64,000 nt of DNA from a virus (IMGVR_UViG_3300042308_001616:58861-122860), one strand, 5' to 3'. Positions 2,805 through 30,750 are shown, counted from the first letter of the stretch. Program-made: numbers and translations. Notes: generated by a model not told the origin, from the letters alone.

Positions 2805-2810
2805 TTTATA

Positions 2811-8402: not shown

Positions 8403-8430
8403 CTTTGATTTATGTTTTTTATCAGATTAG

Positions 8431-8446: not shown

Positions 8447-8467
8447 CATCCATCAAATGTTTATATA

Positions 8468-10622: not shown

Positions 10623-10635
10623 TATAAAAATTTTA

Positions 10636-11409
10636 CTATTTTCTTACCTTTACACTTACGCCTGTTTTAGAAGTATTCTTTCTCACTTTCTGGTTTTTAC
10701 CTTCGTTTATATTGACGGTTACCTTTTTAGACGCCTTCACAACGAATTTGTCTTCCCATGGTGTGAATAGTGTTCCATCCGCATTTACTTCGAGACGTAT
10801 ATTACCCTTAGCACCCTCGTTTAGTATACTCAGTTTCTTCATTGGTATTACACACTGTCCGTTTTTGATTTCACCGACAAACATAAGTGTCCACTCATCA
10901 CTCTCAACTATAAGTCTAACCTCTGTGTCAGATTGGTTCACACCCTCTACTGCGATATCACATCGGAAGTCTTCTGCTTTGTCTTTGTATAATTTATAAT
11001 ATTCATCAGTTTCGTTACTTTCGTTGTGACCGAAATCGAAGTGATTATCTTTTTCATAATCTTCTTCACTTTCACCAGTAGCAAGTCCGTTCATATACAC
11101 AGAGAACTGATTTATATACTCAGTTGTGTCCTTAGTATTATTGTATGTTTCTGATTTCTCAAAATCTTCAATGTTATTCATCACTGCATCGCCGTATGAA
11201 TCTCTCATAGAATCCGCAACTGCATCGTAATCCACACCATCAACGTTATTATTAACGATATAAGGATTCAATGAATGATCAATATGCTCGTCATCGTCTT
11301 CACTCTCTGACTCATTTATAATACCTTCTTTTATAAGGTTAGACTTCATTTTTGTCAATTTTTCAACATCTATAAAGTCTTCAAATCTGAATATGTCTTT
11401 TTCTTCCAT
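10636..11409 (-). CDS. Hypothetical acidic protein (257 aa), possible virion component
   Basis: ORF; acidic N-terminal half, beta-rich basic C-terminus. Confidence 0.45.
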   Translation of the reverse strand: MEEKDIFRFEDFIDVEKLTKMKSNLIKEGIINESESEDDDEHIDHSLNPYIVNNNVDGVDYDAVADSMRDSYGDAVMNNIEDFEKSETYNNTKDTTEYINQFSVYMNGLATGESEEDYEKDNHFDFGHNESNETDEYYKLYKDKAEDFRCDIAVEGVNQSDTEVRLIVESDEWTLMFVGEIKNGQCVIPMKKLSILNEGAKGNIRLEVNADGTLFTPWEDKFVVKASKKVTVNINEGKNQKVRKNTSKTGVSVKVRK

Positions 11410-11425
11410 AATTTATATATTTTTT

Positions 11426-11815
11426 TTAAAAATCAATTTTTACACTCACTTCATTTATGAATCGAGTGAATTCGTTTACGGTAACCTTAATTTCTTTTGT
11501 AGGTTCCTTTATTACGTCGTAGTCAACTCCTCTAACACGACAATATAACTTTATAATTTTCTTTGTATTTTCTTCACCAATGTCTTTTGACATCTGCATC
11601 CATGGATTTCCCTTTTCATATTCCCCTCTGTATGCACCACCTCCGTGTCTAATACTTTTTATTTCGAGTAATATGAAGACTTCGTCCCATGTTAGATCAA
11701 CGTTTTCCCATTTCAGGGTAACTTCTTCCCACTTTAGGTATTTTTTACCAGCAGAAACCTCGTCGTTTGTCCAATTTAGGTCTGTGTTTAGTAGGTTGGA
11801 ATGTATTAGAGGCAC
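11426..11815 (-). CDS. Hypothetical protein (129 aa)
   Basis: ORF with a promoter-like motif at 11831-11848. Confidence 0.45.
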   Translation of the reverse strand: MPLIHSNLLNTDLNWTNDEVSAGKKYLKWEEVTLKWENVDLTWDEVFILLEIKSIRHGGGAYRGEYEKGNPWMQMSKDIGEENTKKIIKLYCRVRGVDYDVIKEPTKEIKVTVNEFTRFINEVSVKIDF

Positions 11816-11882
11816 GTTTATTCTTTTTTGTCTTATATATTATTAAAACGTGGTTGGACTCATGATAGTTAATATATAAAAC

Positions 11883-14800
11883 ATGAGTTATAATCTGACA
11901 GGCGTCACGGTCTCGGGTTCCTACGGGAGATTGGTACAAGTTATACATGGTTCGCCAGACACTTACTATGATGGGTTTGGAAACCTTTTGAACCTTGGAC
12001 CGGGAACTGCATCTGTTGGACCTCAGGGACCTACAGGACCACAGGGACTTTCTGTCAATTGGATGGGACCATGGGATTCAATGATGAATTACTTTACATA
12101 TGATATGGTTTCATATGATGGTAATTCGTATATCTACATAAGTAATACACCAGGTTCTTCTATTACAACGCCTGACTCGGATCCATCTAAGTGGGATATA
12201 ATGACACAAAATATAAAAGGTGCCACTGGTTCTATTGGTGCCACTGGTTCAACCGGTTCTTCCGGTTCATCAGGAACTTCTGGTTCATCTGGTGAAAGTG
12301 GATCCTCTGGAACTTCTGGTTCATCTGGAATTAGTGGGTCATCAGGAACTTCTGGTTCATCTGGAATTAGTGGGTCGTCTGGAACTTCTGGGTCGTCCGG
12401 AATTAGTGGATCATCCGGAACTTCTGGTATAAATGGTGCGACCGGCCCAGGATTTGCAGGAATATCAGCATATATACACGTAACATCAACATATTCAATA
12501 ACTACAAATGATTATTATATAGATGCAAATGGTAGTTTTGATGTTATTTTACCTCTTGGTGTACAGGGTAGATCATATGCTATTAAAAATACAGGAACGG
12601 GTGTTATCACAGTAAAAGGCACAGCATCTCAGTTAATTGACAAACTTCCTTCTTATAATTTGGCATTCTATGATACACTAATAGTAGAATCAGACGGATC
12701 CAACTGGTTAGTTCAAAACACACAAACAAAAACATTTATTAGAGTTTATAACAACACCGGATCTATTATACCAAAAGGAACTGCTCTTAAAATACAATCA
12801 ACATATAATGGTATTCCGAGTGTTTCATTACCATTAGCAAGTTTACATTCAACAAATCAACAAGTAATAGGTTTGGCCTATATTGATATACCGAACGAGT
12901 CGGAGGGTATTGCTATATCAGGTGGTATTTTATCAGGTCTTAATTTATCATCATATTCAGTTGGAGATATTCTTTACTTATCTGATACGATAGCAGGTGG
13001 ATTTGTAAACTCAACAGACTCATTACAATTTTCATCAAGAACAAATCAAATTGGATATGTTACCAGTACAAGTTCTACAATAGGAACTATTCAGGTTGAG
13101 ATTAACAACGAAGATATAAATCTTACTTTAACAGACATTGAAAGAAATATATTGGAGGGAAATGTTATCTCAACTGGTGTTTATCATTATTTAGGAATGA
13201 CTAAAACTAGTTCGATTACTTTCACAGTTGCCAGTGCTTCTGGTTGGATTGTAAAGAATACCGGGGAATTAGCAACTAAACCTGATGTACAAAATGTTAT
13301 TTATGGTGGAACTACGAGTATTACAACACCATACCTAAATAGTGCAGATTCTACATATGTTTTATTAACAGCATCATCATCATTGATGCTACAATCAACA
13401 TTTCCATCACCACAACAGAGGCGAGAGAATATATTTTTGGGTAAAGTGGTTCACCCTGACAGACAAACAATACTAAACGTAAACAACACGGTTGATTACG
13501 ACGTATCACCGATGTCATCACTAAGAGATTTATGGACACCATTAAAACTTGTCAATCAGGGTATAATACCATCGGCACATAGTACGACATTAGAATTCAA
13601 TACATCAGCAGGAACTCTCTGGGGTAACGGAATTGGATGGACAACAAACGAACTAAATCCAAATAGTGTGTTAATTGGTGGTCAATCACCTGTCACTTTC
13701 CAATATAGGACACAGATGGGTGGATCCTTTTCCAACACAACGCTTATTGACCCCTCACACTACGATAACGCCGGCACTGTTACACTGGTTGGTGGGGGTA
13801 ACGGTTCTTCAACAAATCAGAGAATATATTTGTTCCCAACAGGACTTATAAGAGTTCAATATGGACAAACCGTATACGGAACATTATCCGAGGCAATTAC
13901 CGGAACACAGGAAGAACTTTTCACCGAATTCGTCAACAACAGAGATAATGGTATTTTGATAGGAATACTATCTATCAATAAGAATGCAACAAACTTATCC
14001 AATCCATTACAAGCAAGATTCAACTTTGTTTCTAAATTTGGAGAAATACTCGGTGGTTCTGGTGGTATTTCTACAACAACTCTACAACAAGCATATGATA
14101 ACTCATCAACACCAGAAATAGTTACTAATACCAGTCTGGGTGCAGTTTCTTTCAAAAGAGGAAGTGCGTCGGATACAGATAATGTGATTGAAGTATTGAG
14201 TGGTAACGGTTCTAATGGTGTAACGTTTAGTGTAACGGGACAAGGAAGAACGAATACAAATACTCTCACAATACACGGTATTGGTGCCACTGCCGGACTT
14301 ACCAATTATGTAGTTGTTGATAATTCGGGAAATACATACTACCAAACAGGGACGATTGGGAGTGGTAGTAATGGAAGTTCTGGTAGTAGTGGTGTGAGTG
14401 GAAGTAGTGGGACGAGTGGAAGTAGTGGAACAAGTGGTGTAAATGGTGCAGGTGGTACACTCGGATATTATGGTTCATTCTATGACACATCCAACCAGTT
14501 CAATTTGACTGCAAGTGTTCCTATGGCGATGACCATAAACTCACAATATGAGGCAAATGGTGTATCGATAGTAGATGGTTCAAAGATGACTTTCACACAT
14601 CCAGGAACTTACAACTTACAATTTTCAACAGTATTCAATAAATCAAATTCGAATTCGGGTTCAGTGGATATATGGTTTGCTAGAAATGGAGATTATATAA
14701 CAAACTCAAATACACTTTTCTATGCAGCAGGCCAGGCAACATCTATTGCGGCATGGAATTATATGACAACACTCAATGCCAATGATTATATACAACTTTA

Positions 14801-15464
14801 TTGGCAGTCAAATGACACAAGTATATCAATACAATCAACTGGCACACAATCTAATCCAGATAGACCAGCAGTTCCGTCAATAATACTAACTGCACAACAG
14901 GTTATGTACACACAATTGGGTGCAACTGGTAATTCTGGATCTTCGGGTACATCTGGTTCATCAGGAACTTCTGGTTCGTCCGGTAGTTCAGGTTCATCCG
15001 GTTCATCAGGAAGTTCAGGTTCGAGTGGTTCGTCAGGAACGTCTGGTCTTCTATTATTGAATGGGTCGACCGATAATGGAATAATAACACTAAACGGGTC
15101 AGTACCAAATGCAACTGTCGAAACAAATCTAACATTTGACGGAAACACATTACGTGCAAATGCAAATGCAACAACTGTTCCACTTATAATTGCATCCGGA
15201 TCGTCTACACAGGATCTCGTGAGGATAACACAAACAGGAACAGGAAACGCATTCGTCGTAGAAGATAGTTCGAATCCGGATTCAACACCATTCGTTATAA
15301 GTAATACCGGAAATGTTGGTATCGGGACGGCATCACCAACCGACAATTTATCAGTAGCAGGAAATGTTAAAATAACCGGAACTATGAGTGGTTCGAGTAA
15401 CAATACAATACTTACGGACACACTCATACAAGCAGGCTTATTATACCTTTCTAACAACTGTTAA
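11883..15464 (+). CDS. Collagen-like repeat fibre protein 1 (1193 aa; tail fibre / fibril)
   Basis: Three Gly-X-Y tracts (mostly GSS/GTS/GIS/GES triplets) at about 12231-12420, 14349-14440 and 14943-15070. The N-terminal motif GSYGRLVQV..G..YYDGFGNLL and the C-terminal module (ITQTGTGNAFVVEDSSNPDSTPFVISNTGNVGIGT...LLYLSNNC) are both shared with the downstream giant gene. Confidence 0.8.
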   Translation: MSYNLTGVTVSGSYGRLVQVIHGSPDTYYDGFGNLLNLGPGTASVGPQGPTGPQGLSVNWMGPWDSMMNYFTYDMVSYDGNSYIYISNTPGSSITTPDSDPSKWDIMTQNIKGATGSIGATGSTGSSGSSGTSGSSGESGSSGTSGSSGISGSSGTSGSSGISGSSGTSGSSGISGSSGTSGINGATGPGFAGISAYIHVTSTYSITTNDYYIDANGSFDVILPLGVQGRSYAIKNTGTGVITVKGTASQLIDKLPSYNLAFYDTLIVESDGSNWLVQNTQTKTFIRVYNNTGSIIPKGTALKIQSTYNGIPSVSLPLASLHSTNQQVIGLAYIDIPNESEGIAISGGILSGLNLSSYSVGDILYLSDTIAGGFVNSTDSLQFSSRTNQIGYVTSTSSTIGTIQVEINNEDINLTLTDIERNILEGNVISTGVYHYLGMTKTSSITFTVASASGWIVKNTGELATKPDVQNVIYGGTTSITTPYLNSADSTYVLLTASSSLMLQSTFPSPQQRRENIFLGKVVHPDRQTILNVNNTVDYDVSPMSSLRDLWTPLKLVNQGIIPSAHSTTLEFNTSAGTLWGNGIGWTTNELNPNSVLIGGQSPVTFQYRTQMGGSFSNTTLIDPSHYDNAGTVTLVGGGNGSSTNQRIYLFPTGLIRVQYGQTVYGTLSEAITGTQEELFTEFVNNRDNGILIGILSINKNATNLSNPLQARFNFVSKFGEILGGSGGISTTTLQQAYDNSSTPEIVTNTSLGAVSFKRGSASDTDNVIEVLSGNGSNGVTFSVTGQGRTNTNTLTIHGIGATAGLTNYVVVDNSGNTYYQTGTIGSGSNGSSGSSGVSGSSGTSGSSGTSGVNGAGGTLGYYGSFYDTSNQFNLTASVPMAMTINSQYEANGVSIVDGSKMTFTHPGTYNLQFSTVFNKSNSNSGSVDIWFARNGDYITNSNTLFYAAGQATSIAAWNYMTTLNANDYIQLYWQSNDTSISIQSTGTQSNPDRPAVPSIILTAQQVMYTQLGATGNSGSSGTSGSSGTSGSSGSSGSSGSSGSSGSSGSSGTSGLLLLNGSTDNGIITLNGSVPNATVETNLTFDGNTLRANANATTVPLIIASGSSTQDLVRITQTGTGNAFVVEDSSNPDSTPFVISNTGNVGIGTASPTDNLSVAGNVKITGTMSGSSNNTILTDTLIQAGLLYLSNNC

Positions 15465-15511
15465 GGTGTTAGTCCATTTTAATATATACCCAAAAGAAAA
15501 AGGTAAACCTT

Positions 15512-18500
15512 TTGGCTAGAAATCCTAAATACCAGATACGTAACCTCTCTACTGACGGTTATGGAAGATTAGTACAAGTTGTAAATGGAGTTTATTACGA
15601 TGGATTTGGTAATATTTTAAGTATTGGTAGTGTTGGTAGTTCAGGAATCATTGGCGGTTCGTCGGGAACATCGGGTTTAAGTGGAAACTCTGGGTCATCG
15701 GGTTCATCCGGAACATCAGGGCTAAGTGGAAACTCTGGGTCATCCGGAACATCGGGTTCTTCTGGATACTCAGGAACATCAGGTTCAAGTGGAACGAGTG
15801 GTGTTTCGGATAAGTATAAGACTACAACGGTTCACACAATGCCAGTTCCGAGTGTGGATGACATTATATTATTAGAATCTCTTGATACAGGTCTTGCATA
15901 CACAGTAGGACAATCAATAATATTGGCGGAATCTGCGTACGATTATCTGGAAGGTATTGTTCAAAGTTATAGTCCAATAACGGGTGATATGTACGTTATT
16001 GTCAAATATGTCGTTGGTTCGCCTGATGGGCCAGATTTTACGATAAATATTGATGGAACAACTGGGTCATCCGGAACATCTGGGTCATCCGGAATTAGTG
16101 GTTCATCCGGATCTTCCGGAACACGTGGTAGTTCAGGTTCGTCCGGTTCTTCTGGTATTTCCGGTTCGTCCGGAACTTCGGGGTCTTCCGGAGAAAGTGG
16201 TTCTTCTGGTATTTCCGGTTCTTCTGGTATTTCCGGTTCGTCCGGAACTTCGGGGTCTTCCGGAGAAAGTGGTTCTTCTGGTATTTCCGGTTCTTCTGGA
16301 ACTTCAGGTTCGTCAGGAGAAAGTGGTTCCTCTGGAACTTCTGGGTCTTCCGGTTCTTCTGGAGCTTCTGGAACTTCAGGTTCGTCAGGAGAAAGTGGTT
16401 CCTCTGGAACTTCTGGGTCTTCCGGTTCTTCTGGAGCTTCTGGAACTTCTGGGTCATCAGGAACGTCCGGTTCTTCTGGGTCATCAGGTTCATCAGGAAC
16501 TTCTGGGTCATCTGGTGAAAGTGGATCATCCGGAACTTCTGGTTCATCCGGAACTTCTGGTTCTTCTGGATCCAGTGGAACAGGATTTGACACAATTTCA
16601 AATCCATCTGATAACAGATTATTGACATCGGATGGAACTACCAACGCAGCGGTTGCTGAAAGTAATCTAACATTTGATGGTAGTTTGTTAACAATGATTG
16701 GTTCTTCCAATTTTGGAACATCTTCTGGAACACAAAATCTATATGGTAGTGTAATTTCCAATGATAGTTTCTCCATTGGGACACAACAATTTTTCCCACA
16801 AGGTAATAACGGATTTTCAGTCAATGAAAACTTTGACGCCAGTAATAGCACATCTCAAACGGCTTATCATTTTACATCTGGCTCAAACACAAAAAATATA
16901 GTATTTACTTTAGCAAAAACCGGAGAATATACGACAGTTTTTGGTACAGATGGTAGTTCAACTTCCAATAAATTTGTAATAGGCTCAGAAACATCGAATA
17001 CCGTTTTTCAATTCAAAAGTGGATTGGGAATACAACCAATTAACTTAGACGGCGGTTCTGTGATGTTTGAGGTGGCTACAAATTCATTATTTGCACCAAA
17101 TATACCATCCGGTACAACCGAGACGGATATATTAGTCAGAGATGGTAGTGGTTATATTACATACAGAAGTGATTTAAGTTTATCAGGAACGTCTGGGTCT
17201 TCCGGTAGTGCAGGTTCATCAGGAACATCCGGTTCTTCTGGGTCTTCCGGTTCATCTGGATCATCAGGAACATCAGGAACATCAGGAACGTCTGGGTCTT
17301 CCGGTTCATCTGGATCATCAGGTTCTTCCGGAACATCAGGAACGTCTGGGTCTTCCGGTAGTGCAGGTTCATCAGGAACATCCGGTTCATCTGGATCATC
17401 AGGTTCTTCCGGAACATCAGGAACGTCTGGGTCTTCTGGGTCTTCCGGTTCATCTGGAACATCAGGTTCATCTGGAACGTCTGGTTCTTCTGGGTCTTCC
17501 GGTTCATCAGGAACGTCCGGTTCTTCTGGGTCTTCCGGTTCTTCTGGAACATCAGGTTCATCAGGAACGTCTGGTTCTTCCGGTTCATCTGGAACGTCTG
17601 GTTCTTCTGGGTCTTCCGGTTCATCAGGAACGTCCGGTTCATCAGGAACGTCTGGGTCTTCCGGTTCTTCTGGAACATCAGGTTCTTCTGGTTCATCTGG
17701 AACTTCTGGGTCTTCCGGTAGTGCAGGTTCATCAGGAACGTCTGGGTCTTCCGGTTCATCAGGAACATCTGGTTCGTCTGGATCAACAGGTTCGTCTGGG
17801 TCATCAGGATCAGCAGGAAGTTCAGGTTCTACCGGGTCTTCGGGAACGTCAGGAAGTTCAGGTTCATCAGGAACAAGAGGTTCGTCTGGGTCATCAGGTT
17901 CTACCGGATCTTCGGGGTCTTCTGGATCAGCAGGAACATCAGGATCTTCCGGTACATCTGGTTCGTCTGGGTCAGCAGGAACATCTGGTTCGTCTGGGTC
18001 AGCAGGAACATCTGGTTCGTCTGGGTCTTCCGGTACATCAGGTTCGACAGGATCATCCGGAACAAGTGGTGCACAAGGACCACAGGGTATATCCGCAGGT
18101 CAGATATACTATTTCAATATGTCTATGACAGCTTCTGTAAATGGATATAGGTCGCTTTCAACAACACCACTTCCAAATGGTGGCACATATTCAATAGAAA
18201 CACTTACGGGGAATGAGTCAGGACATTTAGTAGAGACTTTTATGACAGATCCATTAGGATTTTCTATCATTCCTGGTGGAACACAAAGGTTTCACTTACA
18301 TTTTTTAAAGGGTGCGGTTGGTGATGATATAGAGGCTTATGTGAGTATAAGACTTAGTGATAGTGTAGGTGTTCCTATTGGACCTACGTTATCAAGCAAC
18401 AAACAATACATTGGATGGAATGACTCAACAACTAATGTAGAGGTACTAACCGATTTAACACTTCCAACGACCGGAATAGATCCAACCAACAGAATGCTTG

Positions 18501-21500
18501 TAAGCATATATTTGGATAACAAGGATTCGAATTCAAGAACGGTTCAATTTCACACAGAAGGAACGGATGATTATTCTTATGTCATAACGTCTGTTGGTGT
18601 TGTGAATGGAACTTCTGGGTCTTCCGGTTCAAGTGGTTCTACAGGAACTTCCGGATCTTCTGGCTCATCCGGAACTTCTGGAACTTCTGGAACGTCTGGT
18701 TCTTCCGGTAGTGCAGGATCATCAGGTACAAGAGGTTCATCCGGGTCATCAGGAACTTCTGGTTCATCGGGAACTTCTGGTTCGTCTGGAACATCTGGAA
18801 CTTCTGGTTCGTCTGGAACATCAGGTTCGTCTGGTAGTTCTGGTTCATCAGGAAGTTCTGGTTCGTCCGGAACATCTGGAACATCTGGATCTTCTGGTTC
18901 GTCTGGAACATCTGGATCTTCTGGTAGTTCTGGTTCATCAGGAACTTCTGGTTCGTCTGGAACTTCTGGTTCGTCTGGAACTTCCGGTACTTCGGGTTCT
19001 TCCGGTACTTCGGGTTCATCTGGAACTTCCGGTACTTCGGGTTCTTCTGGAACTTCTGGAACATCTGGTTCATCAGGTACTTCGGGCTCTTCCGGAACAT
19101 CTGGTTCATCAGGTACTTCGGGCTCTTCCGGAACATCTGGTTCTTCTGGTAGTTCCGGTACGAGAGGATCATCGGGTTCTTCCGGAACATCTGGGTCATC
19201 CGGAACATCTGGGTCATCCGGAACGTCTGGTTCTTCCGGTTCATCTGGAACTTCTGGAACATCCGGTTCTTCCGGTTCGAGTGGGTCGTCCGGGTCTTCC
19301 GGGTCTTCTGGAACATCTGGTTCTTCCGGAACGTCTGGTTCTTCCGGTAGTTCCGGTACGAGAGGATCATCCGGTTCTTCTGGATCATCGGGAACTTCCG
19401 GGGTAAATGGAATCGACTCTGCGAGTTTTGAGTACACTTATAGTACAACGACCACTGCGTCGGATCCTGGATCAGGTTTCTTCAGACTAAACAACCTAAC
19501 TATGGGTAGTGCGACCTCACTTTACATAGACAGATTTGACAGAAATGGTAATAACGACTTACAAAACTTCTTCAGTTCGCTTACAAACTACGGTTCGACA
19601 AATAGACGAGGTTTCATAAAGATAACTAAACAGAACGACCTTACATGGTTTCAGACATATGAATTTAGTGCGACAACCGATAACACAGGATGGTGGACGA
19701 TTACCATAAATAACGTAATACTCGATGCCAACTTTACAAACAACGATTTGTGTTTTATCAGTTTCAATGTTTCAGGACCAACGGGAACAAGTGGGAGTTC
19801 AGGAACATCTGGTTCTTCCGGTTCATCTGGAACTTCCGGTACTTCGGGTTCTTCTGGAACTTCTGGAACATCTGGTTCATCAGGTACTTCGGGCTCTTCC
19901 GGAACATCTGGTTCATCTGGAACTTCCGGTTCTTCCGGAACGTCTGGTTCTTCTGGTAGTTCCGGTACGAGAGGATCATCGGGTTCTTCCGGAACATCTG
20001 GGTCATCAGGAACATCTGGTTCGAGTGGGTCTTCAGGAACATCTGGTTCTTCCGGTTCATCTGGAACTTCTGGTTCGAGTGGGTCTTCAGGAACATCTGG
20101 TTCTTCCGGTTCATCTGGAACTTCTGGGCCATCCGGGTCTTCTGGGTCATCTGGAACATCTGGTTCTTCCGGGTCATCTGGAACATCTGGTTCTTCCGGG
20201 TCATCTGGAACATCTGGTTCTTCCGGGTCATCTGGAACATCTGGTTCTTCCGGGTCTTCTGGGTCATCTGGAACATCTGGTTCTTCCGGGTCTTCTGGGT
20301 CATCTGGAACATCTGGTTCTTCCGGTAGTGCAGGATCATCAGGTACAAGAGGTTCATCCGGGTCATCAGGAACATCTGGTTCTTCCGGGTCTTCAGGAAC
20401 ATCTGGTTCGAGTGGTTCTTCCGGCACTTCTGGATTACTAAGTCTAACAGGTTCAACTGATAATGGTGTTATAACTCTCAATGGTTCCATTCCAAATGCT
20501 ATAGTTGAAAGTAATCTTACATTTGATGGTAGTATACTAAATGTGACTGGTCGTATTATTGCATCCGCATCAACTTCTACGGACCTTTTAAGACTAACAC
20601 AAGTAGGAACAGGAAACGCTTTTGTTGTAGAGGATAGTACGAATCCGGACATTACCCCGTTTGTTATACAGGGTGATGGAAAAGTCGCCATAGGAACTTC
20701 TTCCACCGTTGCAAACTTAGAGGTTAGAGCCAATGGTGCAAACGGTATATTACTGGGTCAAGATCTTGCAGCGAGTGGACAATCGAGTAGACTTTTCTTC
20801 AGCAACGGAACAGACGGACAACACATAGCAATACTCAATTCAAATAACGGAGGATTCGATTTCAGAACTCTATCAACTGCGAATGTTTCCACTGGAACTC
20901 AAAGGATGACAATTGCAGCAGGTGGTGATGTCTACATAGCACAGTCCCTCGGAATAAACCAACCAACACCTACTGCAAAAATACATGTGGTACCTGGTTC
21001 AACACAATCTGGTCTTATAGTTGCAGGTAATAGTGATCAAGATATGGTCAGGATAACACAGATAGGAACAGGTAACGCAATTATTGTTGAAGATAACACG
21101 AATCCAGACTCAACACCTTTCGTCGTTGATGCATCAGGAAACATAGGTGCAGGAACCGCATCACCATCAACAAAATTACACGTATTCTCTACGACGAGTG
21201 GTGCTATAAGAATAGTCGACGGAACACAGCAGAATGGATACGTACTTACATCCGATGCAAACGGGTTGGCAACATGGCAAGTATCATCTGGTGGTGGTTC
21301 ATCACTGAGTGGTACAATCAACTACGTTCCATTCTACAAAACAACCACAACACTATCATCTACGAGTTCGATACAGGTCTCTGGTGATACAGTCGGAATA
21401 GGAGTTTCATTCTCAAACACCGGTGGACCGAGTACAGACTACAGACTGCACGTAAACTATGGATCTGGTACCTACGGTGTTCTAATTGAAGGTGGTGGTG

Positions 21501-22813
21501 GAATTTCCGAAAACATACCACTTAGATTATGGGACAGTGGAACAGGTACAAACAATATAAATATTTTAGAGTTTGGACACGCAACTGCGAGTCCTAAACT
21601 ATATGTTCCGGGTGCACGTATAAAATCTACAAATCCTGGTTCCGGTGCAACAACAGGAGCTCATTTAATATTAGAAACTTCGTCAATATCAAATCCAACA
21701 TCAACAACTTGGAATACCAATCAACTCTATTTGAGAAATGATGGAAATGTAGGTATCGGAACAAATACACCAACTTCATATTTAACAATAAACACACCAG
21801 GTGGTTCATTGTATAGTGGTGGTTCTACAGGGGAACATGCAATATTAATAGGTAGTCAGTCCACTGGTTCTGTTGCTGCATATATAGGAACCGACGAAAC
21901 ACTTTCCGCGATGTACATACAATCTGGTATAAGAGGTGGTGCCGCAACTCCTATACTACTAAACGCACAGGGTGGAAACATCGGAATCGGTGTGACATCA
22001 CCTTCTGCAAAATTACACGCAGTAACTAATGTATCATCAATTCCGTTGATAATAGCATCCGGATCTACAACGGTTGATTTGGTGAGAATAACGCAGGTCG
22101 GTACAGGAAACGCTTTTGTGGTTGAAGATGCTACAAATCCAGATACCACACCATTTGCTATAACCAACACCGGAAAGGTAAAGGTTGGAACGACCGTCGA
22201 TTCAATCTATTCATCCAATATATATTCGATATCAACGACATATGGATTAGAGGCATATGGTGATTTAGCAGGAGTATACGCACGAGGATTAACTTATGGA
22301 ATTGTAGCAGAAGCGGCTACTGATGGAATGGTAGTTGCAGGTATTATGGCATCTGCAACAAACGACCAATTTATGTATGGAGTATACTACGGTGGAATGT
22401 TCTCGGCAAACTCATCAAATGGTGTCAATTACGCGGTAAGGTTACAGGATGGATCACAAGGATTGAACAAAGTTCTGGTGGACACCATAGGTGACGGATC
22501 TGCCAACTGGAAAAGTGATCTGAGTATAACATCAATCATAGCTTCTGCATCAAGTACTTCTGATATAGTAAGAATCACCCAAACCGGAACAGGAAATGCG
22601 TTAGTCGTTGAAGATTCAACAAATCCAGATGCAACACCTTTTGTTATAACATCTACGGGAAATGTTGCAATAGGAACACAATCTACAAATAACACACTAC
22701 ACGTACAGGGTTCTATGGAACTCACCGGAACATTCTCGGGTAGTAATTCTAATTTCGTAGATGCAAACCTTATAACACAAACCGTTCTACTCTATATGTC
22801 GAACAACACTTAG
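15512..22813 (+). CDS. Giant collagen-like repeat fibre protein 2 (2433 aa)
   Basis: Five Gly-Ser-Ser / Gly-Thr-Ser collagen-like tracts (about 53, 160, 315, 240 and 200 aa) separated by globular beta-rich domains. Four copies of the ITQ.GTGNA.VVED.TNPD.TPFV module. Apparent TTG start at 15512; its N-terminal motif is paralogous to fibre 1. Confidence 0.8.
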   Translation: MARNPKYQIRNLSTDGYGRLVQVVNGVYYDGFGNILSIGSVGSSGIIGGSSGTSGLSGNSGSSGSSGTSGLSGNSGSSGTSGSSGYSGTSGSSGTSGVSDKYKTTTVHTMPVPSVDDIILLESLDTGLAYTVGQSIILAESAYDYLEGIVQSYSPITGDMYVIVKYVVGSPDGPDFTINIDGTTGSSGTSGSSGISGSSGSSGTRGSSGSSGSSGISGSSGTSGSSGESGSSGISGSSGISGSSGTSGSSGESGSSGISGSSGTSGSSGESGSSGTSGSSGSSGASGTSGSSGESGSSGTSGSSGSSGASGTSGSSGTSGSSGSSGSSGTSGSSGESGSSGTSGSSGTSGSSGSSGTGFDTISNPSDNRLLTSDGTTNAAVAESNLTFDGSLLTMIGSSNFGTSSGTQNLYGSVISNDSFSIGTQQFFPQGNNGFSVNENFDASNSTSQTAYHFTSGSNTKNIVFTLAKTGEYTTVFGTDGSSTSNKFVIGSETSNTVFQFKSGLGIQPINLDGGSVMFEVATNSLFAPNIPSGTTETDILVRDGSGYITYRSDLSLSGTSGSSGSAGSSGTSGSSGSSGSSGSSGTSGTSGTSGSSGSSGSSGSSGTSGTSGSSGSAGSSGTSGSSGSSGSSGTSGTSGSSGSSGSSGTSGSSGTSGSSGSSGSSGTSGSSGSSGSSGTSGSSGTSGSSGSSGTSGSSGSSGSSGTSGSSGTSGSSGSSGTSGSSGSSGTSGSSGSAGSSGTSGSSGSSGTSGSSGSTGSSGSSGSAGSSGSTGSSGTSGSSGSSGTRGSSGSSGSTGSSGSSGSAGTSGSSGTSGSSGSAGTSGSSGSAGTSGSSGSSGTSGSTGSSGTSGAQGPQGISAGQIYYFNMSMTASVNGYRSLSTTPLPNGGTYSIETLTGNESGHLVETFMTDPLGFSIIPGGTQRFHLHFLKGAVGDDIEAYVSIRLSDSVGVPIGPTLSSNKQYIGWNDSTTNVEVLTDLTLPTTGIDPTNRMLVSIYLDNKDSNSRTVQFHTEGTDDYSYVITSVGVVNGTSGSSGSSGSTGTSGSSGSSGTSGTSGTSGSSGSAGSSGTRGSSGSSGTSGSSGTSGSSGTSGTSGSSGTSGSSGSSGSSGSSGSSGTSGTSGSSGSSGTSGSSGSSGSSGTSGSSGTSGSSGTSGTSGSSGTSGSSGTSGTSGSSGTSGTSGSSGTSGSSGTSGSSGTSGSSGTSGSSGSSGTRGSSGSSGTSGSSGTSGSSGTSGSSGSSGTSGTSGSSGSSGSSGSSGSSGTSGSSGTSGSSGSSGTRGSSGSSGSSGTSGVNGIDSASFEYTYSTTTTASDPGSGFFRLNNLTMGSATSLYIDRFDRNGNNDLQNFFSSLTNYGSTNRRGFIKITKQNDLTWFQTYEFSATTDNTGWWTITINNVILDANFTNNDLCFISFNVSGPTGTSGSSGTSGSSGSSGTSGTSGSSGTSGTSGSSGTSGSSGTSGSSGTSGSSGTSGSSGSSGTRGSSGSSGTSGSSGTSGSSGSSGTSGSSGSSGTSGSSGSSGTSGSSGSSGTSGPSGSSGSSGTSGSSGSSGTSGSSGSSGTSGSSGSSGTSGSSGSSGSSGTSGSSGSSGSSGTSGSSGSAGSSGTRGSSGSSGTSGSSGSSGTSGSSGSSGTSGLLSLTGSTDNGVITLNGSIPNAIVESNLTFDGSILNVTGRIIASASTSTDLLRLTQVGTGNAFVVEDSTNPDITPFVIQGDGKVAIGTSSTVANLEVRANGANGILLGQDLAASGQSSRLFFSNGTDGQHIAILNSNNGGFDFRTLSTANVSTGTQRMTIAAGGDVYIAQSLGINQPTPTAKIHVVPGSTQSGLIVAGNSDQDMVRITQIGTGNAIIVEDNTNPDSTPFVVDASGNIGAGTASPSTKLHVFSTTSGAIRIVDGTQQNGYVLTSDANGLATWQVSSGGGSSLSGTINYVPFYKTTTTLSSTSSIQVSGDTVGIGVSFSNTGGPSTDYRLHVNYGSGTYGVLIEGGGGISENIPLRLWDSGTGTNNINILEFGHATASPKLYVPGARIKSTNPGSGATTGAHLILETSSISNPTSTTWNTNQLYLRNDGNVGIGTNTPTSYLTINTPGGSLYSGGSTGEHAILIGSQSTGSVAAYIGTDETLSAMYIQSGIRGGAATPILLNAQGGNIGIGVTSPSAKLHAVTNVSSIPLIIASGSTTVDLVRITQVGTGNAFVVEDATNPDTTPFAITNTGKVKVGTTVDSIYSSNIYSISTTYGLEAYGDLAGVYARGLTYGIVAEAATDGMVVAGIMASATNDQFMYGVYYGGMFSANSSNGVNYAVRLQDGSQGLNKVLVDTIGDGSANWKSDLSITSIIASASSTSDIVRITQTGTGNALVVEDSTNPDATPFVITSTGNVAIGTQSTNNTLHVQGSMELTGTFSGSNSNFVDANLITQTVLLYMSNNT

Positions 22814-22832
22814 TGAAGGAAGACCATCATCG

Positions 22833-22845
22833 TAATATATAAAAG
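22833..22845 (+). promoter_or_regulatory. Promoter-like motif TAATATATAAAAG upstream of the first 140-aa paralog gene
   Basis: Motif family member 12 nt upstream of the ATG. Confidence 0.4.
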
Positions 22846-22856
22846 AAAAAACGAAG

Positions 22857-23291
22857 ATGGCAAACAACCTAACGTTCACAAGTGCTCCCTTCCTTCAAGG
22901 ATTAACCGCATCATCTGCGAACTCTTCCACAAACACCAGGTACACTATACTGACGGCAGATGCTACCTACGACCGTAGAATATACGGAATATCAATTGTT
23001 AATACATCCGCGGCTTCTGCACAAACAGTAACAATATGGTTAAACGATGGAACCGTTTCGTATCAAGTATTCGTACTAAACGTGCCACTAAGCTCGGGTA
23101 ACTCTACCACGGTTGCGGCAGTGGATATAATGGGCTCTGTCTACGGTGCATCAGTACTTCAAAAACAGAGAGATGCTAACGGAGTACCTTATTTCAACCT
23201 ACCTAAGACCTGGTCTGTACAATACCAGTATAACACCGCACTTTCTACGTCTGCATTGTATCTACTCGTCTTCGGAGAAACTTACGCATAA
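22857..23291 (+). CDS. Paralogous ~140-aa domain protein, copy 1 (putative virion/fibre-associated)
   Basis: Shares motifs LTFTS, DRRIYGISI, NDGT, ANSGN/SSGN and YFNLPK.WS with the next two genes. Confidence 0.55.
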   Translation: MANNLTFTSAPFLQGLTASSANSSTNTRYTILTADATYDRRIYGISIVNTSAASAQTVTIWLNDGTVSYQVFVLNVPLSSGNSTTVAAVDIMGSVYGASVLQKQRDANGVPYFNLPKTWSVQYQYNTALSTSALYLLVFGETYA

Positions 23292-23293
23292 AA

Positions 23294-23725
23294 ATGGCAG
23301 GAGCACTGACTTTTACATCCGGTGCATTTATGCAATGCACGGTTGCCACCTCATCAACAACAGGTGGTACTATATACGACATACTAACCGCAACTTCTTC
23401 TGTGGACAGGAGAGTTTATGGTTTGTCAATAGTTAGTGTCGATAATGGTGCAAACCCCGTGAAAATATATCTAAACAACGGAACAGACAATATACAGGTT
23501 TGTAACGTAAATATCGTGGCAAACTCAGGGAACGCAATAGCAACTGCACTTACTGACGTATTCTCTAATACTATGGGAGAAGCAGTACTGGCTAAAACCA
23601 GGGATGCTAACGGGGTAACCTATTTCAACCTACCAAAAAACTGGTCGATAAGAATGTCTTTTTTGACTACACACGGACTAAGTACCGAGAAGATATACAC
23701 ATTTGTGTTTGGAGAAAACTACTGA
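23294..23725 (+). CDS. Paralogous ~140-aa domain protein, copy 2
   Basis: MAGALTFTS...DRRVYGLSI...NNGT...ANSGN...YFNLPKNWS; 3-nt spacing from copy 1. Confidence 0.55.
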   Translation: MAGALTFTSGAFMQCTVATSSTTGGTIYDILTATSSVDRRVYGLSIVSVDNGANPVKIYLNNGTDNIQVCNVNIVANSGNAIATALTDVFSNTMGEAVLAKTRDANGVTYFNLPKNWSIRMSFLTTHGLSTEKIYTFVFGENY

Positions 23726-23731
23726 TAAGAA

Positions 23732-24592
23732 ATGGCTGACCAACTAACACTAACTAACACACCTCACTTATATTGTATATCACTGACATCATCAAGTTCG
23801 GCGAATACGGCATACACAATAGTACCCGCCGATTCTACCTATGATAGGAGAATATATGGACTAAGTATAACAAATACATCTGCAGTTAACCACCTAGCAT
23901 GTACACTTTGGTTGAGTAATGGTACAACAGACTTTCAGATGGGACTCGTACAGATAAACGCCAACTCAGGAAATAACATCTCAACTGGCGCAACCGACGT
24001 TTTCACAAACTCTGTTTTCTCGGGTCTTTTGACGTATGCAATGGCAGATAATATGGGTGTTTGGTATTTCAATCTACCAAAAACATGGTCATTGAAGTTC
24101 ACATACACCAACACACTATCCGTAGGAAACGCAATGACCTTTACTACATTCGGTGAAAAATATGACGGAGTTACACACCGTTTCACTTCGAAACCATTTC
24201 AACAGACTGCAACATTTTCTAATGCTACTGGAACAACCAGGAAGGATATAGTTAGTAGTGTTGCATACGACAGGAGGATTTACGGAATAGAGGCAACGAG
24301 TACCGACACAACTGCAAGAACACTGAGTATAAACTTAAATAATGGTACTACAAACTATCTAATTTACACAATATCAGTATTGGCAAACTCTGGTAACTCA
24401 ACATCGGTTTCTGCACAGGATTTATTCTATGACGCTTTCATACAAGGTTTATTTGTAAGAACCGCAGACGCAGAGGGTATATCTTACTACTTCAACCTAC
24501 CCGCAGGATGGAGCATAAATGGTTCATTCACGGTGGCAGTAACTGCAGGTTTGCAAATAAACATAAAAACAATCGGCGATACTTATGAGTAG
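23732..24592 (+). CDS. Paralogous domain protein, copies 3 and 4 fused in tandem (286 aa)
   Basis: The motif set occurs twice (DRRIYGLSI...YFNLPKTWS and DRRIYGIEA...YFNLPAGWS). Confidence 0.55.
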   Translation: MADQLTLTNTPHLYCISLTSSSSANTAYTIVPADSTYDRRIYGLSITNTSAVNHLACTLWLSNGTTDFQMGLVQINANSGNNISTGATDVFTNSVFSGLLTYAMADNMGVWYFNLPKTWSLKFTYTNTLSVGNAMTFTTFGEKYDGVTHRFTSKPFQQTATFSNATGTTRKDIVSSVAYDRRIYGIEATSTDTTARTLSINLNNGTTNYLIYTISVLANSGNSTSVSAQDLFYDAFIQGLFVRTADAEGISYYFNLPAGWSINGSFTVAVTAGLQINIKTIGDTYE

Positions 24593-25484
24593 GAATGGTA
24601 TAAACGATGGACTTAAACAGGGTTGGTTACAGGGTGTGAAGTCTGGTTTCGGACATTCGAGAATGGAGAATGGTCTAAAGAAAGGTTTAGTAAGTGAATC
24701 AGGAATACACACCAAAGTTCAGGATCCGACACTTCTACAAGGAAACAAACAACCGTCATCATTCTTTATTGCAGATTTTAACACTACAAAAACTGCAGGT
24801 ACAACGGTTGCAGGACTTACTCAATTGTCACCGGGTAAAACTACTTATGTTATTGGTTCTTCACCTGCTTATCAACCTCCTTATTCAGGAAATGGTGGTG
24901 TATATAATAATAGAGCATACATTGATTTCAACTCCGGTGCCGACTCAGTGTCTACAACTAATACACTAATGGGTTTGGGTAAGAATGAACTCACTGTAAT
25001 GATGGTATTTCGTATATCTAGTGTTACTGACGGAAGAATACTATTTTATAGTGTCGATTCAACAATTTCAAGTACAATTGGTGATATACAGATAACAACA
25101 CAAGGTGGTAACAGAGTTAGAGTATCTTTTATAGGTAACCCAACGACAACCAGTGCAGTATATGACACATACAATCCACTCGTTGAAGGTTTACATCATT
25201 GGCACATACTAACGGTGAAGTTTAGACTTTACCAACCGAATGGTCAGGGTTCAGAAGTTGAGATGTATCTTAATGGAAATCTAAATATGAGACCAGTAAC
25301 TACTACGTTCGGTGCATCAACGGGAAACTTCGTAGGTAACACATTTTATTTCGGTAATAACTCATCAGCAACTTCTGGTGGATCTCAAATTGCCAGTGCG
25401 ATAACTTTTGATTATTGGTTAAACTCATCCGAGCAAATAAGAATGGAAAATTTTTACAAATGGTATTATGGTAGGAGATTTTAG
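24585..25484 (+). CDS. Putative LamG/concanavalin A-like lectin-fold protein (candidate receptor-binding or structural)
   Basis: Beta-rich, G/S/T-rich 299-aa ORF with a jelly-roll-like pattern (YIDFNSG...LTVMMVFR...ILFYS...HHWHIL...EMYLNGNL). Overlaps the preceding paralog by 8 nt. Confidence 0.35.
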   Translation: MSRNGINDGLKQGWLQGVKSGFGHSRMENGLKKGLVSESGIHTKVQDPTLLQGNKQPSSFFIADFNTTKTAGTTVAGLTQLSPGKTTYVIGSSPAYQPPYSGNGGVYNNRAYIDFNSGADSVSTTNTLMGLGKNELTVMMVFRISSVTDGRILFYSVDSTISSTIGDIQITTQGGNRVRVSFIGNPTTTSAVYDTYNPLVEGLHHWHILTVKFRLYQPNGQGSEVEMYLNGNLNMRPVTTTFGASTGNFVGNTFYFGNNSSATSGGSQIASAITFDYWLNSSEQIRMENFYKWYYGRRF

Positions 25485-25674
25485 AAACAAACCAGATTTC
25501 AACCCTGAGACTCATATTTTGACACTAAAACCAGAATATGTTGGTGTTGGTGATATAATCAGAGTATCTGGTCAGATTCAGGTTATGTTCAACTCGGAAA
25601 CTGTGACATCTGAGTATTATCCATATTATTTCTACAACGGATTAGACGATATTTTTGATGTCATATCCATATAA
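25468..25674 (+). CDS. Small hypothetical protein (68 aa)
   Basis: ORF only. Confidence 0.3.
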   Translation: MVGDFRNKPDFNPETHILTLKPEYVGVGDIIRVSGQIQVMFNSETVTSEYYPYYFYNGLDDIFDVISI

Positions 25675-26490: not shown

Positions 26491-27181
26491 TATTTCTGAG
26501 ATAGAGGAGGTATTCAAAGATGTCTTCCAGGAAGAGGAAGGATTGGTTAAATCGATAGAAACTATATACGAGAAACCACAAAAGGAAAATGCAGAATTCC
26601 TGAAACTCGTAATATCAATACATGGACTATCAACGACAGACACCAATATCATACACACTAAATTTCTCTTCAAAACTGACTTAGAAAAAAGAGATATTGT
26701 AGAGAAAGAGTTTATCTACCTTTACGACATAAACTGTGTATATCACAAAGTGCAGTTTGATAATACTATCGACCTAAAAGAGAAGATAGAAGGAATTATA
26801 GAATCCAATAACTTCGGTGAGGACATAATAATACTCTCCGACTTCATTGAGGCACCTGCGATGTTTTTGAACTACTATATGAAAAGAGCGAAAATAGAAG
26901 ACTATTCAATATTTGATGTAGAGTATGAGCCTAAGTTCAAAACAACTCCATGTGATAAGACTACATTCGACTTCAAAATAAACATAAACAATAACTACAA
27001 CATAGATATGTCTATCTACAAAGTAGACAGAGAAAATGATGAAGATGTAGACCACTACAAATTCCAGTTCAGATTTATGGATGATATCGAGACTTACGAA
27101 ACTGAAGACCTCAAAAATATACACTATTTCATAGGATCCAAAATTGCCAAAACATTAGATAAAAAACTTAAGAACAAATGA
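26447..27181 (+). CDS. Hypothetical protein (244 aa)
   Basis: ORF; its start overlaps the upstream gene. Confidence 0.45.
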   Translation: MTDSLRKKHTDMKISISEIEEVFKDVFQEEEGLVKSIETIYEKPQKENAEFLKLVISIHGLSTTDTNIIHTKFLFKTDLEKRDIVEKEFIYLYDINCVYHKVQFDNTIDLKEKIEGIIESNNFGEDIIILSDFIEAPAMFLNYYMKRAKIEDYSIFDVEYEPKFKTTPCDKTTFDFKININNNYNIDMSIYKVDRENDEDVDHYKFQFRFMDDIETYETEDLKNIHYFIGSKIAKTLDKKLKNK

Positions 27182-27660
27182 GAATAATTAAATTGTTCGA
27201 AGAGTTTACCTATAATGATGTTGGTGCTGCGATAGTTTACCACGGTACACCAGACGAACACGATTTTAACAAAAGAGGATATTTAGCAAACGGAACTTTC
27301 TTCTCTACAAGTTCTAACGAAGCTAGTTCGTATGGAAAACATATCTATAAGATTGAACTCAAAAAAGATTTGAATATACTCGATACAAACAAAATTGAAG
27401 ATTGTCAGAAGATAATTGACGAATTTGGACCATTAGAAGATCCTTATTACAATACAGACGAACCCGAATACTTAGTTAACACGGCAGAGGAACTTTGGCA
27501 CCATAGTGATAGTTGGTCACCAATTGAAGCAGATGAACAACTTATGTCTTGGCTAAATGGAAATTATGATGGTGTTTGGGTCTACGAAGGTGGTACCAGA
27601 AATTTACTAATATTCAAACCAGTAGAAGAAAAGATTGATAAAACCTTTAAAGTGAAATAA
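27178..27660 (+). CDS. Hypothetical protein (160 aa); possible mini ADP-ribosyltransferase-like fold (speculative)
   Basis: AIVYHGT (H-G-[ST]), GTFFSTSSNEA (aromatic pair / STS-like), then IYKIEL or YEGG acidic candidates. Order resembles H-Y-E ARTs (PARP/DarT/Tpt1) but spacing is compact. Confidence 0.4.
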   Translation: MRIIKLFEEFTYNDVGAAIVYHGTPDEHDFNKRGYLANGTFFSTSSNEASSYGKHIYKIELKKDLNILDTNKIEDCQKIIDEFGPLEDPYYNTDEPEYLVNTAEELWHHSDSWSPIEADEQLMSWLNGNYDGVWVYEGGTRNLLIFKPVEEKIDKTFKVK

Positions 27661-29215: not shown

Positions 29216-30148
29216 CTAAACTCTTTTTCCAGTTTCTGGATCGTAGTTCATAATAAGAAGTTCAATACCCTTCTCCTTCTCTACACCCTCTGTCTTAATA
29301 ACTGCCGATGGTCTGTGAAACTCCTTCGATGTCCAGATGTATTTATCTTTCGGTAGAATTTCTTCAAGTAACGGGAAGTAGTAATAAGATAAAGACCATC
29401 TCGATTTAGTTGTCTTCAATAGTTCTAATAACCTTCTATGTGAAGCAACTCCAAACGTGTTCTCGTCATCACATCCGTACCAAAACAAACGTCTACCATC
29501 ATCATCATTCTTAACGTCATTGAATCGAGCGTAAGGCGGATCCAGGTAAATATAAGTGTCTTCTGAATCGTATTTACGAATAACCTCCTCAAAGTCCATA
29601 TTATGGAAGTCAGTTATATTCTTCAAACGCTCAGTGTATTTATTCTTCTCTAATTTGTTAATCAAAATACTAAGGTTCAGTTTATCCTTCTTCTTTTTAT
29701 AACCAGTGAATCCACCACCACGAGGATACACACTAGAAAATGATGATGTGATTAAGAACGCATACATAGCCGCTTTATCTAAATCACCAATCTCGAAGTC
29801 CATATCGTCTAAGAAGTCGTTTTGAACGTATTCCCTATAAATTGCCTTATAGAAGTCCCATTTGTCGTCCACAGACGTCGCAGTGCAGTGTAACTTACCA
29901 CCCGGTGCCATCAATGCTTTCAATACTGGAAGGAAGTTTTCTGGATCGGAACAACACTTCATCAGATTGGCCTGATGTCTGTTACGATCATTGAAAACAA
30001 CAGTGTTGAACTCCATCTTAGAGTCTAAATAAATTGCAAAAGAACCAGAGAATGGCTCAATATACGTGGTACACTCCTCGAACGGTATGTTCGGAGTTAT
30101 AAAGGATTGGAAGGCGGCCTTTCCGCCAAAATAAGAGACTATCGACAT
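29216..30148 (-). CDS. dam: DNA N6-adenine methyltransferase (Dam-like, D12 class)
   Basis: N-terminal VSYFGGKAAF and catalytic IYLDPPYA (DPPY) motifs. Confidence 0.8.
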   Translation of the reverse strand: MSIVSYFGGKAAFQSFITPNIPFEECTTYIEPFSGSFAIYLDSKMEFNTVVFNDRNRHQANLMKCCSDPENFLPVLKALMAPGGKLHCTATSVDDKWDFYKAIYREYVQNDFLDDMDFEIGDLDKAAMYAFLITSSFSSVYPRGGGFTGYKKKKDKLNLSILINKLEKNKYTERLKNITDFHNMDFEEVIRKYDSEDTYIYLDPPYARFNDVKNDDDGRRLFWYGCDDENTFGVASHRRLLELLKTTKSRWSLSYYYFPLLEEILPKDKYIWTSKEFHRPSAVIKTEGVEKEKGIELLIMNYDPETGKRV

Positions 30149-30243: not shown

Positions 30244-30750
30244 TTAAATACCTAATATTGCATCAAGACCAACTCTGTGAACACCACGTAGTTCATCTCT
30301 TACTTTCATAAGTATTTTACCAAGATGGTTCTGTCCTCTACCATTACAGACGCCCCAGAAGGTGTCGTTCCAGGTATTGCCTTCGACCAATTCTTCGTCA
30401 CCGGTTTCGACCAACATCTCTGCTAAAATTTCAATTTTGAATTTCTCTCGTATTGCCCAGTTCATAAAATCGAGTTTCTTCTCGTTCCAGTCTTTTCTTA
30501 TAGACATCTTCTGACCGATTTTCTTTACCATTCCGGGATATGCAATTCGTGCAATCATCTCGCGAAAATCTACGGGTGTATATTGATTTCCGTTAATTAA
30601 TTGTGGACCATTACATTTCATCGCTACATAATAGTGTTCAACGGATGGATAAACTATACCCTGGTGTTCTATCTCACAGGGGTAGAAGTTTGACAGGAAA
30701 CCGTACCTACCTTCGAATTTTTGTATCATAATATTTACCAATATAACCAA
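30244..30750 (-). CDS. NADAR (YbiA-like, DUF1768) domain protein: putative ADP-ribosyl hydrolase
   Basis: GFLSNFYPCEIEHQGIVYPSVEHYYVAMK matches the NADAR core (F.LSNF..........Y.S.EH.YQA.K). Confidence 0.7.
   Translation of the reverse strand: MVILVNIMIQKFEGRYGFLSNFYPCEIEHQGIVYPSVEHYYVAMKCNGPQLINGNQYTPVDFREMIARIAYPGMVKKIGQKMSIRKDWNEKKLDFMNWAIREKFKIEILAEMLVETGDEELVEGNTWNDTFWGVCNGRGQNHLGKILMKVRDELRGVHRVGLDAILGI

Follow-up and report, generated by a model that had tools for sequence, protein, structure and literature searches.

A conserved array of predicted jelly-roll proteins behind tagged collagen-like fibres in uncultured megaphages

What does a tandem array of small, mutually related genes do directly behind the gene of a giant fibre? 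The question is raised by the 64,000-nucleotide stretch of viral DNA analysed here (IMGVR_UViG_3300042308_001616:58861-122860; hereafter the window), which is the T4-like structural region of a “Mahaphage”-clade megaphage and contains the following genes:

36785-38497, minus strand: Gp23-type major capsid protein (MCP)
38584-40683, minus strand: prohead protease (weak match)
43613-45346, minus strand: Gp20-type portal protein
50110-51078, minus strand: gp15-like protein
58061-60205, minus strand: T4-type large terminase (TerL)

The MCP of the window shares 72-73% identity with its counterparts in LR756502 (642 kb) and LR745206 (635 kb), and is more remotely akin to those of Lak megaphages. These two genomes belong to the “Mahaphage” clade, whose hosts are predicted to be Bacteroidetes (PMC7162821). 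Homologs of the array occur on metagenomic contigs as large as 241 and 415 kb, and the source samples appear to be freshwater. To our knowledge, none of the Mahaphage or Lak megaphages has ever been cultured, and we know of no account of their mode of host recognition.

The array comprises four domains of about 140 aa encoded by three consecutive genes:

22857-23291, plus strand: D1, a 144-aa protein with one predicted jelly-roll
23294-23725, plus strand: D2, a 143-aa single-domain paralog with the same predicted fold, beginning 2 nt past the D1 stop
23732-24166, plus strand: D3a, predicted N-terminal jelly-roll of a 286-aa two-domain protein
24167-24592, plus strand: D3b, predicted C-terminal jelly-roll of the 286-aa protein, stop codon included

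D1 begins 43 nt after the end of the 2433-aa fibre gene at 22813, and the 286-aa gene (ORF3, also referred to as D3; 23732-24592) splits into residues 1-145 and 146-286. The initial annotation, made from this DNA by eye, had proposed four paralogous domains in three genes, and this stands: the open reading frames are present in a 1+1+2 arrangement, and all six domain pairs are recovered by BLASTP with E-values from 8e-21 to 8e-41. The identities of these pairs (36-46%) are slightly higher than the 30-40% estimated by eye, the divergence itself being real. An alignment of the four domains spans their whole length; 27 of its columns are invariant, and identity to D1 is 39-48%. A six-frame HMM scan of the 64-kb window returned exactly four copies, with no fifth one and none within the fibres. 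The motif skeleton described earlier is also real, with small deviations such as SSGN in D1; it reads MAxxLT(F/L)T(S/N), DRR(I/V)YG, N(D/N)GT, (A/S)(N/S)SGN and YFNLP(K/A)xWS. The positions kept in all paralogs are RR-x-Y, G-N, YF-x-x-P-x-x-W and G-x-x-Y. Of 14 universal positions found by per-site analysis, half are in strands and half in loops; no site is strictly specific to one paralog across the four copies. In composition, the proteins are rich in S/T/N/A/G (49%) and contain 8-12% charged residues, resembling the MCP and unlike the neighbouring protein o262. Cysteines number zero in D1, two in D2 and two in D3, none of them within the first 10 residues.

An AlphaFold2 model of D1, computed with a 41-sequence alignment, is an eight-stranded beta-sandwich (pLDDT 90.8, pTM 0.83), and on this model the array domain folds as one jelly-roll. 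For D3, the two-domain model (pLDDT 89.7, pTM 0.87) shows a confidently fixed orientation between the domains. ORF3 was considered as a canonical double jelly-roll of the PRD1/STIV/adenovirus type; such capsid proteins (PRD1 P3, STIV MCP) likewise carry two jelly-rolls per chain, and the assignment was rejected because the domain packing differs in the model. Fold matches of D1 include the STIV turret protein, nanovirus and satellite-virus capsids, YomS/XepA and lambda J, at 4-15% identity, and a Foldseek search of the BFVD returned many tailed-phage proteins of about 110 aa, either uncharacterised or labelled “virion structural”. Structure prediction and Foldseek comparison of one repeat, the check suggested with the initial annotation, have thus given a confident single jelly-roll whose best matches are structural virion proteins. 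The length and the predicted fold of D1 also fall within the range of cement/decoration proteins (about 110-150 aa). Identity of the array domain to the cement proteins KHP40 gp16 (7dou), Pam1 (7eel) and GP4 (8h89) is 6-13%, the KHP40 gp16-like proteins reaching 13% to D1 in structural alignment. A profile search of PDB sequences gave nothing significant, the best hit being an unrelated adhesin (E=0.06).

The family is unannotated and present in no curated library searched. D1, D2, D3 and the two following gene products, o299 and o68, have no Pfam match below E=0.04 and no PHROG match at E<=0.1, and NCBIfam gave no match for D1, D3 or o299. Remote family members produced only noise against Pfam, PHROG, NCBIfam and PDB sequences, and tblastn of ORF3 and of two remote members (P0289 and P0230) against 50,697 deposited phages found no relative, which leaves no cultured or annotated phage as a reference. 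In metagenomes, the family is broad: a word-indexed search yielded 368 clusters at 90% identity, and an exhaustive profile search 404 representatives (50% identity) at E <= 1e-3, including 75 at E <= 1e-10. Single-domain proteins of 130-149 aa make up nearly all representatives, and no fusion to a fibre was found among the best 150. One apparent fusion, P0279 (668 aa, six matches), was discarded as a spurious match of an FG-GAP-like repeat to the “LNDGTG” motif. Unexpectedly for virion proteins, about 6 of 145 remote representatives have a signal peptide.

The nearest clue to function is the pair of fibres that precedes the array:

11883-15464, plus strand: first collagen-like fibre, 1193 aa (Pfam Collagen, E=1.3e-18; phrog_5073, E=9e-33)
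15512-22813, plus strand: giant collagen-like fibre, 2433 aa (open reading frame and translation)

The shorter fibre matches several PHROG tail-fibre families, phrog_5073 among them. The longer one consists of G-S-S/G-T-S repeats with globular inserts between them, and at both termini it is conserved with the fibres of two other loci (L001 and L006). Both proteins terminate in a short tag, ...TLIQAGLLYLSNNC-stop in the 1193-aa fibre (codons 15438-15461) and ...NLITQTVLLYMSNNT-stop in the 2433-aa fibre (codons 22787-22810). The tag follows the pattern [LIVMF][LIVMF][FY]x[SA][NA]N[TC]-stop, with ...LLY(L/M)SNN(T/C) as its typical form; the variants seen are TQTVLLYMSNNT, IQAGLLYLSNNC, QAMLLYISNNT, TMALLYLSNNT, NSTLLFLAANT and ALIFY(A/S)NNC. 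Of about 3894 stop-delimited segments in the window, the pattern fits just two, the ends of the two fibres. In every close locus examined the protein directly upstream of the first jelly-roll gene is tagged, and the tag is kept even where the remainder of that fibre is unrelated. In the fibres of L020 and L022, collagen repeats reach to about 20 aa from the end and are followed by the tag. A reverse search of IMG/VR with the fibre C-terminus found six tagged loci, all of them on contigs that bear the jelly-roll module. In the remote loci of P0289 and P0230 the tag was looked for and is absent.

Downstream, two further genes complete the module, and a short motif precedes it:

22834-22841, plus strand: AATATATA, late-promoter-like motif in the 43-nt gap between fibre and D1
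24585-25484, plus strand: o299, conserved partner of about 300 aa with a Gly-rich N-terminal segment, overlapping D3 by 8 nt
25468-25674, plus strand: o68, last gene of the operon, overlapping o299 by 17 nt

Homologs of o299 (282-321 aa) follow the jelly-roll genes in 22 of 22 close loci; their alignment shows the Gly-rich N-terminal segment and then a conserved body of about 230 aa. The initial annotation had called this neighbour LamG-like, a claim that holds in part. Neither o299 nor nine close relatives match Pfam, and the family profile finds none of the PDB sequences; two diverged relatives do match Laminin_G_3 (PF13385) below threshold, at 27.2 bits (E=4.8e-6; cutoff 27.6) and 22 bits (E=1.9e-4), both covering nearly the whole model. 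It is plausible, on these matches, that o299 carries a ConA/LamG-like domain, and it is more likely than the jelly-roll proteins to be the receptor-binding component. Relatives of o68 (56-79 aa) have a common C-terminal YY-x-x-G-x-x-x-IFD-like motif.

The motif in front of D1 belongs to a set of WATATATA sites that occur 44 times in the window, against 12.1 +/- 5.0 expected (3.6-fold; none of 100 shuffles reached 44). Such sites lie 10-40 nt upstream, on the coding strand, of the genes for MCP, portal, protease, TerL, both fibres, D1 and o262, and we infer from this placement that WATATATA is a late promoter. No such site lies between D1, D2, D3, o299 and o68. Since, within the module, the motif is found before D1 only, and the genes are tightly spaced (2 nt between D1 and D2, 6 nt between D2 and D3) or overlapping, D1 to o68 probably form one late transcription unit. 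A scan for sigma-70 promoters and terminators gave no excess over the shuffled expectation.

All close loci share the same order, tagged fibre, jelly-roll gene or genes, o299 homolog and small open reading frame, whether they lie on megaphage contigs (up to 415 kb) or on smaller, unrelated contigs of myovirus-like type. The number of jelly-roll domains varies as follows:

One domain: loci L020, L022 and L023-L026
Two domains: locus L021
Three domains (D1-like plus D3): loci L008-L010
Four domains (1+1+2): all megaphage-lineage loci

L022 combines a 363-aa fibre with a 153-aa jelly-roll protein. Copy number is not simply proportional to the count of tagged fibres: two copies accompany the single tagged fibre visible in L021, and in L014 four domains go with the one tagged fibre seen within 10 kb. 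In LR756502, the closest complete relative, about 17 kb of the window (~8405-25674) are missing as a block from collinear flanks. This block contains a GT4+GT9 glycosyltransferase, two small open reading frames, both fibres, D1-D3, o299 and o68. The genes that flank it, o439 and o262, adjoin each other in LR756502, so that the block behaves as a single cassette. The jelly-roll genes are absent from both LR756502 and LR745206 despite the close similarity of their MCPs to that of the window. The link to the fibres that had been proposed from gene position is thereby strengthened, as jelly-roll genes lie directly downstream of a tagged fibre in all loci examined, and fibres and array are gained or lost jointly as one cassette. 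Two remote members lend weaker support to an association with fibre or tail: P0289 lies inside the tail module of another phage, between a tailspike and minor-tail/J-like proteins, and P0230 stands after a fibre-like protein and before a gene opening with an o299-like Gly-rich motif. The array is tied to the fibre C-terminal ends, not to the capsid.

In a neighbour-joining tree, the domains fall into four clean orthologous clades (D1, D2, D3a and D3b), which hold across lineages only about 50% identical; the duplications are thus old and each copy has been retained, in agreement with the old duplication suggested at the outset. Single-copy forms group with D1, which is for this reason taken as the ancestral-type copy, and the second L021 copy groups with D3b. 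In 83 clusters, reaching down to 40% identity, D3 is always a fusion of 283-288 aa. Comparison with locus L014 gave the following rates:

D1: pN 0.05, pS 0.57, dN/dS about 0.05
D3: pN 0.105, pS 0.73, dN/dS about 0.04

Across the array genes, nonsynonymous differences amount to 5-12%, with 57-78% of synonymous sites different. Amino acid identity to L014 is 90% for D1 (the most conserved gene of the module), 86% for o299 and 69% for o262. The four copies are under strong purifying selection and are not hypervariable; with a dN/dS of about 0.05 against L014, their supposed maintenance for function is upheld.

The reading that we favour, at a probability of roughly 0.45, is that D1-D3 form together with o299 and o68 a late-expressed, fibre-distal accessory complex, an adaptor or a cap, seated on the C-terminal tag. 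D1, D2 and D3 would be late virion accessory proteins at the distal fibre end, and the jelly-rolls, o299 and o68 would dock as a module on the free tag (...LLY(L/M)SNN(T/C)-COOH) of both fibres. A lone jelly-roll protein, presumably homo-oligomeric, would fill this role in the simpler relatives; in the megaphage lineage, duplication would have led to four fixed and non-interchangeable subunits (1+1+2), probably making up a hetero-oligomeric cap or adaptor that closes the trimeric fibre end and carries the lectin-like o299. The orthologous clades, the purifying selection and the invariant D3 fusion fit fixed positions in one assembly. We infer tag binding, oligomeric state, presence in the virion and the adhesin role of o299 from the features of the locus, and the tag may bind o299 or o68 instead of the jelly-roll proteins. 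Jelly-roll fibre accessory proteins as a kind are well known, the family itself being unnamed. The closest known systems by position are the gp38 adhesin of T2/S16, gp38 of T4 and the Tfa proteins of lambda, Mu and P2, which are likewise small, have genes that directly follow the fibre gene within a late operon, act on the fibre C-terminal end, as presumed for the array, and are exchanged together with the fibre. The array differs from them in the absence of sequence similarity and of any Pfam or PHROG membership, in its predicted single jelly-roll, and in having four paralogous domains, two conserved partners and tagged collagen-like fibres.

T4 gp38/gp57A and the Tfa proteins of lambda, Mu and P2 are assembly chaperones for their own fibres, and in the T4 gp37-gp38 and stf-tfa pairs the chaperone gene lies directly downstream of the fibre gene. 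The array genes occupy the same classical position, and the main rival reading is that their products, together with o299 and/or o68, are chaperones: they would hold the tag only transiently, bring the collagen-like fibres into register, promote trimerisation and be missing from the mature virion. We regard this as possible, if doubtful. The lack of fibre fusions among the best 150 representatives also fits a dissociating factor of this kind, the conservation exceeds what would be expected for an exposed receptor binder, and a trans-acting nucleator is plausible for the L020 and L022 fibres, which have no globular trimerisation domain. Nevertheless, no similarity to known fibre-chaperone families was found in Pfam or PHROGs, the low-charge, S/T/N-rich composition and the best fold matches point to structural virion proteins, and four fixed, co-retained paralogs with an invariant fusion would be unusual in a chaperone. 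Mu- and T2-type factors remain on the fibre, so that chaperone and tip roles can merge, and this explanation then partly coincides with the accessory complex. The initial annotation also raised the idea of adhesins with alternative receptor specificities; each paralog would then bind a different host ligand, and host range would be broadened. The position at the fibre locus and the exchange of the whole cassette between related phages would suit adhesins; nonetheless, the megaphage lineage invariably carries all four copies as distinct, slowly evolving orthologous clades with a dN/dS of about 0.05, no gene of the module is more conserved than D1, the universal positions and motifs are common to all paralogs with no strictly paralog-specific sites, and the lectin-like o299 is the better candidate. 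Alternative specificities are thus not borne out, and we consider direct adhesins improbable.

A location on the capsid has also been weighed, in which the proteins would be trimeric jelly-rolls on the capsid lattice, acting as cement/decoration proteins (like KHP40 gp16, Pam1 and GP4) or as head-fibre anchors. The collagen-like fibres might indeed be head fibres rather than tail fibres; however, the array genes are linked to fibres and not to the capsid gene, co-varying with the former and missing from a relative with a 73%-identical MCP. Moreover, the gene after the L021 module encodes a 929-aa protein that appears, by eye, to have a sheath-like N-terminus, the remote P0289 is placed among tailspike and tail genes, and the low identity to cement proteins comes with no sequence-level match. 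A capsid role is in our view very improbable. A further comparison is offered by C1q A/B/C and Bacillus BclA, which, as proposed for the array, have jelly-rolls associated with the C-terminal end of a collagen-like stalk, and the paralogous jelly-roll subunits of C1q (A/C/B) are encoded in tandem. C1q/TNF heads are covalently attached to collagen, whereas the array proteins are separate polypeptides with no copies inside the window fibres. In a rather unlikely “split C1q” arrangement, the tag would insert into, or strand-complement, a jelly-roll oligomer, which would act in trans as a trimerisation nucleus and stay as a permanent head; the megaphage hetero-oligomer would then adapt two fibre types (IQAGLLYLSNNC and TQTVLLYMSNNT) to one lectin-like adhesin. 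Ena/DUF3992 subunits (8pdz, 9i0y, 7a02) differ from the array, which has no Pfam DUF3992 match and belongs to a phage and not to a spore; as D1 has no cysteine, Ena-type disulfide connectors are not expected.

In the literature on huge phages, collagen-like tail fibres and jelly-rolls, we found no description of such a tag-plus-module architecture. The tag offers an easy means of recognising fibre genes by sequence when metagenomic phage genomes are annotated, and also a testable handle on the mutual recognition of fibre and tip proteins. If docking on the tag holds, tip modules would be graftable onto heterologous fibres, and the “split C1q” arrangement, if true, would represent a new modular way to build and exchange phage fibre tips via a portable docking tag. 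Should tag docking prove wrong, the annotation of a new fibre-associated family would still be useful. Broadly, the locus defines a conserved and portable, putative host-recognition cassette for megaphages and for several smaller uncultured myoviruses.

A block of about 17 kb (window ~8405-25674) is missing as a unit from the corresponding segment of the closest complete relative (LR756502.1:226000-266000), in which the genes flanking this fibre cassette adjoin each other. The cassette comprises a gene for a fused GT4+GT9 glycosyltransferase, two small minus-strand ORFs, the two collagen-like fibres, the array of paralogous jelly-roll domains, the gene for the probable LamG-like partner protein (o299) and the small last gene of the operon (o68). 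Its right-hand border is o262, a gene encoding a highly charged protein (36% K/R/D/E), and nowhere else in the region is there similarity at the DNA level to LR756502 and LR745206:

25702-26490, + strand, o262, matching phrog_36119 (E=3e-33)

Both fibres of the window share an N-terminal G-x-YG(R/K)LVQ(V/I) motif, and the C-terminus of each is formed by a conserved peptide, ...LLY(L/M)SNN(T/C)-stop, encoded at:

15438-15461, C-terminal tag codons of the first fibre
22787-22810, C-terminal tag codons of the giant fibre

This tag is carried by every fibre lying directly upstream of the jelly-roll module, is found nowhere else in the window, and also occurs at fibre ends in the related loci L001, L004, L006, L008, L014, L015 and L020-L026. 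Two types are kept between lineages, IQAGLL[YF]LSNNC for the first fibre and TQTVLL[YF][LM]SNN[TC] for the second.

The close relative L014 (IMGVR_UViG_3300008113_000007) has a further paralog array within its fibre region: three tandem paralogous proteins of ~315 aa (485-3360), with Gly-rich C-termini ending in ...GG(K/R)GGDGL(V/I)IIT.., situated upstream of the giant fibre, in the place of the first fibre of the window. Remote members of the jelly-roll family with Sec-type signal peptides were found in two other loci (L011, 3753-6790; L027, 610-2453), grouped with other signal-peptide proteins; the cluster in L011 lies inside a phage tail module. Many long ORFs on both strands (window 15967-20733) overlap the part of the giant fibre that holds the collagen repeats; they were rejected as genes, being frame artefacts of GGTTCT-type repeats, and among them is:

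19651-20733, - strand, artefact ORF with PEEPDVPD repeats

Two glycosyltransferase genes, close to each other, adjoin the Ser/Thr-rich collagen-like fibres:

3465-4247, + strand, GT2-family protein
8405-10588, + strand, 727-aa fusion of GT4 (Glycos_transf_1) and GT9 (heptosyltransferase-like) domains

This adjacency suggests that the fibres may carry glycans, as Bacillus BclA and the mimivirus fibrils do.

Other genes were identified shortly downstream of the jelly-roll module (the first three below) and further into the structural region:

27178-27660, + strand, ART-PolyVal-like ADP-ribosyltransferase (match below the Pfam cutoff)
29216-30148, - strand, Dam-type N6-adenine methyltransferase
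30244-30750, - strand, gene with NADAR-domain homologs in L001 and L004
34492-36642, - strand, 716-aa protein that matches DUF7487 in three stretches (E=2e-50), directly downstream of the major capsid gene
41178-43112, + strand, full-length exoribonuclease of the RNase II/R type, with RNB (E=1.5e-98), CSD2 and S1 domains

The exoribonuclease gene is placed between those of the prohead protease and the portal, and its presence in a phage structural region is unusual.

The octamer WATATATA occurs at 44 sites in the window (3.6-fold enriched) and precedes most structural genes by 10-40 nt on the coding strand, for example at:

11871, 15481, 22834 and 25689, + strand
36664, 38533, 40712, 45425 and 60225, - strand

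It can be likened to the T4 TATAAATA and is probably the late-promoter element of this phage clade.
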